Shown: positions 5,688 to 6,000, counted from the stretch's first letter. The stretch is 13,923 nucleotides of DNA from a virus (IMGVR_UViG_2681813227_000021:1-13923), one strand, 5' to 3'. Numbers and translations: made by a program. Notes: generated by a model from the sequence alone, not told the origin.

Positions 5688-5827
5688 GGTTTGCAATTAC
5701 CAAGTGGAGTGCTTATATTTACCTTTGAGGTAAATTTACATCGCACTCCTCTTGTGCCATAGTAATCGGGCACTGGCAAAATCCAGTGCCGGGATTGGCG
5801 TCCCGAGTTACTACAGAGGCACATATG

Positions 5828-5847
5828 CCGCATAAGCGGTTTTTTTT
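5828..5847 (+). terminator. Candidate intrinsic terminator
   Basis: Short stem CCGC-ATAA-GCGG (5828-5839) followed by 8 T (5840-5847). It is preceded by several stable hairpins at 5706-5749, 5769-5790 and 5857-5903. Confidence 0.4.
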
Positions 5848-6000
5848 ATGTGTAAAGCGCACCTATTCTATGGTGGGCTGTGTGGGGGCACCGAAAGGTG
5901 CGCCGGGTCCTTTGTAGCCGGTTACGCCAACCCTGCACAGTTCACCACCAACCGATTGGCGTCGGTAGTGGTGATTAACCTAACTACAAAGGTGATCACT

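Follow-up and report, generated by a model that had tools for sequence, protein, structure and literature searches.

In phage P1, C4 RNA is released from its operon transcript by RNase P as a mature species of ∼77 nt and represses antirepressor synthesis. We describe here the spacer at 5688–6000 of IMGVR_UViG_2681813227_000021:1-13923, a 13,923-nt stretch of viral DNA (the window) belonging to an E. coli prophage of the epsilon15/phiV10 type (Uetakevirus). The spacer is 313 bp long and lies between an SOS-controlled gene, whose stop codon ends at 5687, and a Bro-N antirepressor gene with its ATG at 6001. With a probability of roughly 85%, we read it as a P1-immI-type RNA control module for that antirepressor gene. 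Direct support comes from covariance-model family membership, conserved structures, covariation within two sets of recognition sites (a'/a1/a2 and b'/b1/b2), the position of b2 and the distribution of an operator motif. Although no annotation marks it, the spacer is a typical example of the known isrK/C4 (P1 immI) system, and no new principle is involved.

The immI C4 system of P1 and P7 was described by Citron & Schuster 1990, which enters here as cited in PMC2864571. In the P1 record the series begins with a C1 operator, Oc4 (Op51), which lies at the −35 of one promoter; another promoter, P51b, comes next, then a1, b1, c4, a2 (3 nt after c4) and b2, and finally icd and ant1/2. In the related Gifsy-1 system, some transcripts from the isrK promoter read through its terminator (Hershko-Shalev et al., PMC4825925). 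In 'structure A' the long RNA is translationally silent: the middle of isrK is base-paired with ∼30 nt of 'orf45', a pairing demonstrated through the compensatory mutants G28A/C162U and G31A/C159U. STnc1160, a stable RNA made by processing, overlaps the orf45 region, and short IsrK, for which Hfq binding is described, activates anrP translation in trans (PMC4825925). Counting from the isrK 5' end, G28/G31 and C159/C162 would fall in a1 and a', respectively.

Two further systems are more distant. P22 sar (RF00262) has the same role as C4: it is a small antisense RNA of an immI region, and it prevents translation of the antirepressor. However, sar comes from the strand opposite its target and is fully complementary to it, whereas C4 lies on the same strand and uses two short sites via loops; the two share no sequence or structural homology. 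The CI RNA of satellite phage P4, with its seqA/seqC sites, resembles C4 in that an RNA processed from a leader pairs with sites on both sides of itself. P4 CI acts by premature transcription termination of the replication operon, not by occlusion of an antirepressor ribosome-binding site. The Gifsy-1 authors name P4 CI with its seqA site as a structural analogue (PMC4825925).

An Rfam scan of the whole window at the curated gathering thresholds gave three matches. isrK (RF01394) matched at 5770–5846 with 74.2 bits (cut-off 50), and the C4 antisense RNA (RF01695) matched over its full length (1–87) at 5866–5952 with 79.5 bits (cut-off 45). The third match was sar, at 8617–8684; this was the only one for that family in the window, and none was found in 5650–6050 even at E = 1. 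In a permissive scan c4-a1b1 (RF03163, 'a1, b1 targets of C4') scored 44.3 bits at 5757–5809 (E = 3.9e-10), without reaching its cut-off of 46.7, which is passed by P1 and by four related loci. The initial annotation of this DNA had proposed that the spacer encodes a small regulatory RNA controlling the antirepressor gene, comparable in role to P22 sar. Both proposals are borne out: two RNA families exceed their cut-offs, b2 sits on the Bro-N Shine-Dalgarno, and what sar is to P22, C4 is to P1, namely the antisense RNA by which synthesis of the antirepressor is blocked. The elements of the spacer and its target are as follows.

5706–5749, no strand assigned: inverted repeat (the 'nested hairpin'), between the SOS-gene stop codon and the isrK promoter
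5719–5733, no strand assigned: palindrome TTACC-N5-GGTAA, candidate operator, 1 nt 5' of the isrK −35 hexamer
5735–5763, plus strand: sigma-70-like isrK promoter, TTTACA, 17 nt, CATAGT, with TG upstream of the −10; predicted start ∼5770
5770–5846, plus strand: isrK RNA, comprising hairpin 1, hairpin 2 with a1 in its loop, the b1 linker and the terminator
5795–5801, plus strand: a1, UUGGCGU, in the loop of isrK hairpin 2; complementary to a' over 7 nt
5811–5819, plus strand: b1, CUACAGAGG, in the isrK linker; pairs with C4 b' over 9 nt, with one G-U
5820–5825 with 5847–5852, plus strand: candidate helix CACAUA/UAUGUG around the terminator, possible only in read-through RNA
5827–5847, plus strand: isrK terminator, GCCGC-AUAA-GCGGU then U8, seen in the Rfam match, the terminator scan and the fold
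5866–5952, plus strand: C4 antisense RNA, with a 17-bp outer stem, a GNRA hairpin (5888–5901) and hairpin 2 (5902–5922) with the b' loop
5909–5917, plus strand: b', CCUUUGUAG, loop of C4 hairpin 2
5924–5930, plus strand: a', ACGCCAA, single strand after C4 hairpin 2
5942–5948 with 5968–5974, plus strand: alternative hairpin UCACCAC/GUGGUGA, a competitor of the C4 outer stem, with a2 displayed in the loop
5956–5962, plus strand: a2, UUGGCGU, 4 nt past the C4 end; pairs with a' over 7 nt
5984–5992, plus strand: b2, CUACAAAGG, pairs with b' over 9 nt and overlaps the Shine-Dalgarno AAGGUGA
6001–6687, plus strand: Bro-N antirepressor gene, the regulated target (Pfam Bro-N 5e-20; PHROG anti-repressor Ant)

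Judged by sequence, this arrangement appears to match the P1 immI leader element for element. P1 has a repressor operator at the promoter, where the window has the candidate one. In both, a1 and b1 come first, followed by a terminator-like hairpin and C4, with a2 3–4 nt farther on and a b2 whose end is 8 nt from the first start codon (that of Bro-N at 6001 here, that of icd in P1); C4 folds alike in the two, a' and b' occupy corresponding positions, and an antirepressor gene is regulated. The P1 promoter P1c4 (formerly P51b) is annotated at the place of the window isrK promoter. On P1 the Rfam models score 68.8 bits for C4, 51 bits for c4-a1b1 and, below threshold, 35.1 bits for isrK (E = 8.5e-6), the last match spanning a hairpin and U5 at the position of the isrK terminator. 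The two loci also differ. In P1, b2 covers the icd ribosome-binding site and ant is controlled indirectly, whereas in the window b2 lies on the Shine-Dalgarno of the antirepressor gene itself and there is no icd-like first cistron, with no open reading frame (ORF) between C4 and the Bro-N ATG. The window terminator is strong, with U8, but P1 has only U5; the candidate operator here would belong to an epsilon15-type repressor, not to C1; and the a/b specificities are different.

Direct inspection of the sequence recovered every motif that the initial annotation had listed. GGAGTGC starts at 5706 and GCACTCC at 5743, enclosing inner arms ATTTACCT at 5717 and AGGTAAAT at 5728. GGCACTGG at 5769 and CCAGTGCC at 5783 make up isrK hairpin 1, and the GNRA hairpin GCACCGAAAGGTGC at 5888–5901 is hairpin 1 of C4. 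The stem followed by T8 (5840–5847) proved to be the isrK terminator, that is, it ends a short RNA; the terminator scan placed a stem and T-run at 5827–5840, followed by TTTTTTTT. As in other isrK members, a promoter-like site (5735–5763) and a Rho-independent terminator (5827–5847) bound the RNA, both identified at the sequence level only. Predicted folding was more stable than that of shuffled sequence throughout, at −23.1 kcal/mol for 5700–5755 (z = −7.1), −45.2 kcal/mol for 5866–5952 (z = −3.6) and −101.9 kcal/mol for the whole leader at 5770–6015 (z = −4.5); for 5770–5847, z was −2.8. ARAGORN found no tRNA or tmRNA in the spacer.

By BLAST, the spacer or its C4 half was present in 235 phage records. 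We fetched 14 diverse loci, among them those of phiV10, Tyrion, a Klebsiella phage, APSE-2, a Yersinia phage, Stx phages including VT2-Sakai, and an Actinobacillus phage, and aligned them with the window (15 sequences). All 14 carry isrK, then C4 20–27 nt farther on, upstream of an antirepressor/ant, Bro or Rha gene. Covariation across homologous loci had been named as a check on the initial annotation, and it came out clearly for the isrK and C4 helices, which are conserved: 94.8% of cells were paired and 21 pairs were changed on both sides, a result as good in 0 of 500 shuffles. The isrK helices carry compensatory changes. The C4 outer stem, hairpin 1 and hairpin 2 were 100% paired, with compensatory changes at 10 pairs. 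Within isrK hairpin 1, the loop region GCAAAAUC (5777–5782) has positions 10–12 (AAA) and 14 (C) invariant in 15 of 15 sequences, and the full GCAAAAUC is kept in most loci, P1-like ones included. No complementary partner for GCAAAAUC was found; Hfq binding or a kissing contact are candidate roles. The helix that encloses the terminator was 71% paired, with five pairs changed on both sides, and its complementary runs averaged 7.2 nt within a locus against 5.8 nt across loci and 5.3 nt in shuffled sequence, pointing weakly to a real helix.

The long-range pairings covary as well. Pairing of a' with a2, and of a' with a1, was 100% in the 15 sequences, with 5 of 7 pairs compensatory in each case. 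The b loops are too variable for alignment, so for these we compared pairing to own and to foreign loops. Contiguous pairing of b' in the phage loci averaged 8.7 nt with its own b1 and 9.1 nt with its own b2, against 5.05 and 5.84 nt between loci; b' itself differs by phage, reading CCUUUGUAG in the window and CCUUUUAG in phiV10. A second set came from a scan of bacterial genomes with a 15-base degenerate isrK pattern. The matches listed were mostly chance ones in unrelated phyla, and at least ∼16 true loci remained after filtering, from Leclercia, Kluyvera, Proteus, Brenneria, Vibrio, Xanthomonas and others; Gifsy-1 was not among the matches listed. In these loci (at least 16) the means were 7.9 and 8.4 nt for own b1 and b2 against 4.6 and 5.6 nt for cross pairings, with at least 15 distinct b' loops and at least 10 distinct a' sequences. 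As in the C4 family, b' and a' are thus complementary to b2/a2 at the downstream ribosome-binding site, in a manner that covaries across the 31 loci; as in c4-a1b1, sites a1 and b1 lie 5' of C4, are complementary to a' and b', and both covary. Such a pattern is the signature expected of a sequence-specific RNA-RNA lock with many specificities. In 12 of 16 loci b2 stops 7–10 nt short of the start codon.

Some loci depart from this pattern. Among the matches listed in the bacterial scan are two loci from Enterobacter in which a gene comes straight after isrK-like hairpins 1 and 2 (with a1) and C4 is missing behind them; a C4 encoded at another place may use these as stand-alone targets. One locus from Serratia, also among the matches listed, looks mosaic: its a1 and a' do not match, and extra sequence is inserted between isrK and C4. 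In the Phi24B record HM208303, the C4 half of the spacer matches at 18405–18484, upstream of the antirepressor region. A review passage on this phage (PMC12197685) says that a 20-nt RNA, '24B_1', represses d_ant; 24B_1 might derive from the Phi24B isrK/C4 module.

The minimum-free-energy fold of the full leader pairs a1/b1 with a'/b' and melts the C4 outer stem. It reproduces, as a prediction only, a cis pairing like that of Gifsy-1 structure A. A conserved competition exists between this pairing and the C4 fold. A second alternative pairs the 3' arm of the C4 outer stem with GUGGUGA at 5968–5974, in a hairpin that is 97.5% paired in relatives with two compensatory pairs. The initial annotation was thus right that mutually exclusive pairings exist, but they are not the ones it named. 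It had paired GCGCACCT (5857–5864) with AGGTGCGC (5896–5903), which includes the 3' arm of the GNRA hairpin, and had suggested attenuation or a small regulatory RNA; in the former case this choice would act as a cis attenuator setting read-through from the LexA-controlled promoter upstream. The 8-bp complementarity is indeed present in the window, next to a real terminator at 5827–5847, and SOS-induced transcripts could enter the module past 5706–5749 because the first hairpin has no U-run. Yet across the 15 relatives that pairing was found in only 53% of cells, the level of shuffled sequence, while the GNRA hairpin itself covaries; we rejected the pairing, which shows no covariation in the alignment. 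It also lies downstream of the terminator, so 5857–5864 cannot be an antiterminator for it, and no conserved helix competing with the terminator stem, the mark of an attenuator, was found.

The promoter evidence bears on the same question. All 15 related loci, and P1 too, have a promoter-like pair that ends 6–7 nt ahead of the isrK 5' end (6 nt in the window); its sequence varies between phage groups, while its position is constant whatever lies upstream. The module also occurs in lambdoid, APSE, P1 and further contexts where there is no LexA-controlled gene upstream. Since it has its own promoter at a conserved position, the module is not primarily a read-through attenuator of the LexA promoter. 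In place of the proposed control from that promoter, the antirepressor operon would use its own predicted sigma-70-like promoter (5735–5763), independent of the LexA-controlled one. We regard the cis attenuator as very improbable.

Coding capacity offers a different account of the spacer, which had been described as ORF-free. This holds in that no ORF in the spacer has support and RefSeq calls none, but mechanical ORFs of 43–60 aa overlap it and the frame from ATG 5848 stays open into the Bro-N gene. The spacer might then be protein-coding, either because Bro-N is extended at its N terminus by a start at ATG 5848 or through one of the 43–60-aa overlapping ORFs; the open frame allows the former, and some public records annotate long antirepressor or Rha coding sequences across the homologous region. 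Against it, ATG 5848 comes directly after the U8 tract with no Shine-Dalgarno, relatives carry indels in the 5848 region, and the substitutions are compensatory for RNA helices. A strong Shine-Dalgarno and the ATG at 6001 are conserved in relatives, and the RefSeq and phiV10 annotations start the gene there. A protein-coding spacer is scarcely credible on these grounds.

Annotation practice in this region varies. Phages PhiR47_1, 118970_sal3 and Stx2_14040 have annotated Rha or antirepressor coding sequences that start far upstream and cross both isrK and C4 (1125–2273, 1131–2273 and 1169–2002 in locus-piece coordinates); in these the start codon just after b2 is likelier to be the true one. 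RefSeq shows the spacer without gene or RNA in a 99%-identical prophage beside yfgH/yfgI of E. coli UTAK-1, and the phiV10 reference record labels the corresponding region only 'terminator', leaving the RNAs unmarked. Several public phage records, then, call protein genes straight across isrK/C4 RNAs; recognising the module fixes the antirepressor start codon and accounts for the long 'empty' spacer.

One short reading frame does have a conserved start. In all loci the C4 outer stem has an unvarying AUGG at its 5' end, and from this AUG (5870 in the window) an ORF of 15 codons runs to a stop that ends at 5917, inside the b' loop. This frame is where an exact copy of the Gifsy-1 mechanism would have to operate: the read-through RNA would be silent, IsrK would open the ribosome-binding site of an orf45-like ORF coupled to the antirepressor gene, and the C4-like region would be mainly coding or structural sequence, not a repressor RNA. 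Experiments on the homologous Gifsy-1 locus (PMC4825925) and the invariant AUGG speak for such a scheme. However, the ORF ranges from 8 to 100 codons across 16 loci, a length variation on which we rejected a conserved small ORF equivalent to orf45. Here its 15 codons stop 83 nt short of the Bro-N ATG, a distance that rules out translational coupling of the orf45 type, and the window has no orf45-type ORF coupled to the antirepressor gene. The region shows RNA-type covariation and matches the C4 model, and b2 lies directly on the Bro-N Shine-Dalgarno. That the Gifsy-1 mechanism applies here in every step is thus quite improbable.

In other respects the two loci are alike: each has an isrK-family RNA with a promoter to itself (a predicted one in the window) and a terminator taken to be leaky, then a stable RNA resembling C4 and, last, an antirepressor gene. 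They differ in that the window ORF is not of orf45 length, that the window, from a podovirus prophage of epsilon15-like type, has a Bro-N fusion as its antirepressor, and that a LexA-boxed small antirepressor-domain gene stands upstream in place of antQ. The absence of a conserved orf45 across loci suggests that the Gifsy-1 mechanism is worth re-examining as one of decoy versus repressor RNA.

For the P1-type module we propose the following course of events, modelled on P1 and Gifsy-1. The promoter at 5735–5763, abutted by the candidate repressor operator (5719–5733), would start transcription near 5770. Most transcripts would stop at 5827–5847, giving a 77-nt IsrK RNA with the decoy sites a1 and b1. 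Those that read through would hold C4 (5866–5952), which would be cut out of the precursor, probably by RNase P as in P1. The C4 b' loop and a' would then pair with b2 and a2, covering the Bro-N Shine-Dalgarno and blocking translation; the lysogen would thereby make no antirepressor, whether from its own gene or from a superinfecting genome that shares its specificity. IsrK a1/b1 could occupy a'/b' instead, in cis within unprocessed read-through RNA or in trans, with the short RNA acting as an anti-antisense, much as Gifsy-1 IsrK activates anrP translation; by competing in these two ways they would relieve repression. The module would predict RNA-based immunity specificity in epsilon15/phiV10-like prophages.

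Several points weigh against this proposal. The c4-a1b1 score in the window is just under its Rfam cut-off. The transcription start, the efficiency of termination and C4 processing in this prophage are drawn by analogy, and we infer the direction and size of the regulatory effects from P1 and Gifsy-1. The candidate operator lies just 5' of the −35, where a repressor may block, spare or even stimulate the promoter. In Gifsy-1, activation was explained by orf45 translation coupled to anrP, a step not transferable here, and constitutive expression of the orf45/STnc1160 region strengthened IsrK toxicity instead of weakening it (PMC4825925), a result that a simple decoy model would not lead one to expect.

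The first hairpin of the spacer is best read differently from how it was initially annotated. It begins 19 nt past the SOS-gene stop codon. Its outer arms are kept only in E. coli relatives, whereas the inner palindrome is kept in 4 of 4 epsilon15-like loci, its loop varying; Tyrion and the Klebsiella phage retain just TTACC-N5-GGTAA and have different outer arms. The palindrome occurs in the window at 5719–5733 and 6760–6774 without mismatch, and with one mismatch at 5339–5353, upstream of the LexA-boxed gene and its promoter. The complete phiV10 genome has 14 such sites where 0.64 would be expected, and five of the 14 border the repressor and cro-like genes; a search with N4 spacing gave nothing, the correct spacing being N5. 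Because of this excess in phiV10 and the clustering at the repressor, we read the inner palindrome as a prophage-repressor operator, the counterpart of Op51. TTACC-N5-GGTAA at 5719–5733 is likely the operator of the main prophage repressor, and the set of palindromes represents candidate operators of epsilon15/phiV10-type repressors.

The inner palindrome, taken in the initial annotation for RNA structure, is accordingly better understood as DNA. The inverted repeat at 5706–5749 could still be mainly an RNA element, a terminator or 3'-end stabiliser of the SOS-gene mRNA, with the operator incidental. The predicted stem-loop is very stable and stands close behind the stop codon, and phiV10 has in its place a longer, perfect 19-bp inverted repeat. 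However, the hairpin lacks the trailing U-run that marks a canonical intrinsic terminator; conservation in Tyrion and the Klebsiella phage is confined to the inner palindrome, and that palindrome recurs at phiV10 promoter regions. A primarily RNA role is doubtful, though by no means far-fetched, and the operator and SOS-mRNA 3'-end roles are not mutually exclusive.

A broader reading is more tentative, and we would give it somewhat less than even odds: that IsrK (RF01394) and the C4-system 'a1b1' leader (RF03163) are one element, and that the whole family is a three-part RNA immunity lock. The 31-locus comparison supports the first part, in favouring isrK and c4-a1b1 as the same leader element. 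If the reading is true, the parts of the lock would be a decoy (the terminated a1/b1 leader), a repressor RNA (C4 with a'/b') and a target (a2/b2 on the ribosome-binding site), with dozens of interchangeable specificities. Gifsy-1 orf45 would then not be a conserved gene, and activation by IsrK would be titration of the C4-like STnc1160.

The window holds two other genes or regions related to the Bro-N antirepressor, as follows.

5393–5408, plus strand: perfect LexA box CTGTATATTTATACAG, upstream of the 85-aa gene
5430–5687, plus strand: 85-aa LexA-boxed (SOS) gene, a stand-alone copy of the antirepressor C-terminal domain (∼80 aa)
7671–8615, minus strand: P22_AR_N antirepressor, the second antirepressor
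8617–8684, plus strand: sar RNA match, 45.2 bits against a cut-off of 43, antisense to the antirepressor leader
8691–8855, minus strand: Arc-like gene of the P22-type immI region
8946–9407, plus strand: Arc/Mnt-like gene of the P22-type immI region

The 85-aa protein is 37–40% identical to the C-terminal ∼80 aa of both antirepressors (6400–6687 and 7671–7970), whose C-termini are nearly identical to each other (PHROG 450, function unknown). PHROGs places the 85-aa protein in the same unknown-function family as the C-terminal domain of both antirepressors; Pfam gave for the SOS gene just a sub-threshold spurious match. LexA-controlled small antirepressors are known from Gifsy phages (PMC3121763). 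The window region 7671–9407 is a complete P22-type immI region, and P1-type and P22-type antirepressor controls therefore stand ∼2 kb apart in this prophage. One putative repressor-binding domain would be under three controls: LexA, isrK/C4, and sar plus Arc. If the three-part-lock reading is true, the lock gates one of three proteins that share the antirepressor C-terminal domain, the others being under LexA (5393–5687) and under sar with Arc/Mnt (7671–9407), so that one repressor-binding domain would be wired to three input signals.

Between the two antirepressor modules lies a further pair of genes (6835–7534), a YafO-toxin-like gene at 6962–7534 (Pfam 9e-6) and, upstream of it, a small ORF at 6835–7014 (PHROG 6685); an operator-like palindrome is found ∼60 nt upstream of this YafO module. 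At the start of the window, host genes yfgH (1–516) and yfgI (532–1071) precede the prophage lysis genes, which begin at ∼1291, and so the window contains a prophage-host junction (1–1291).

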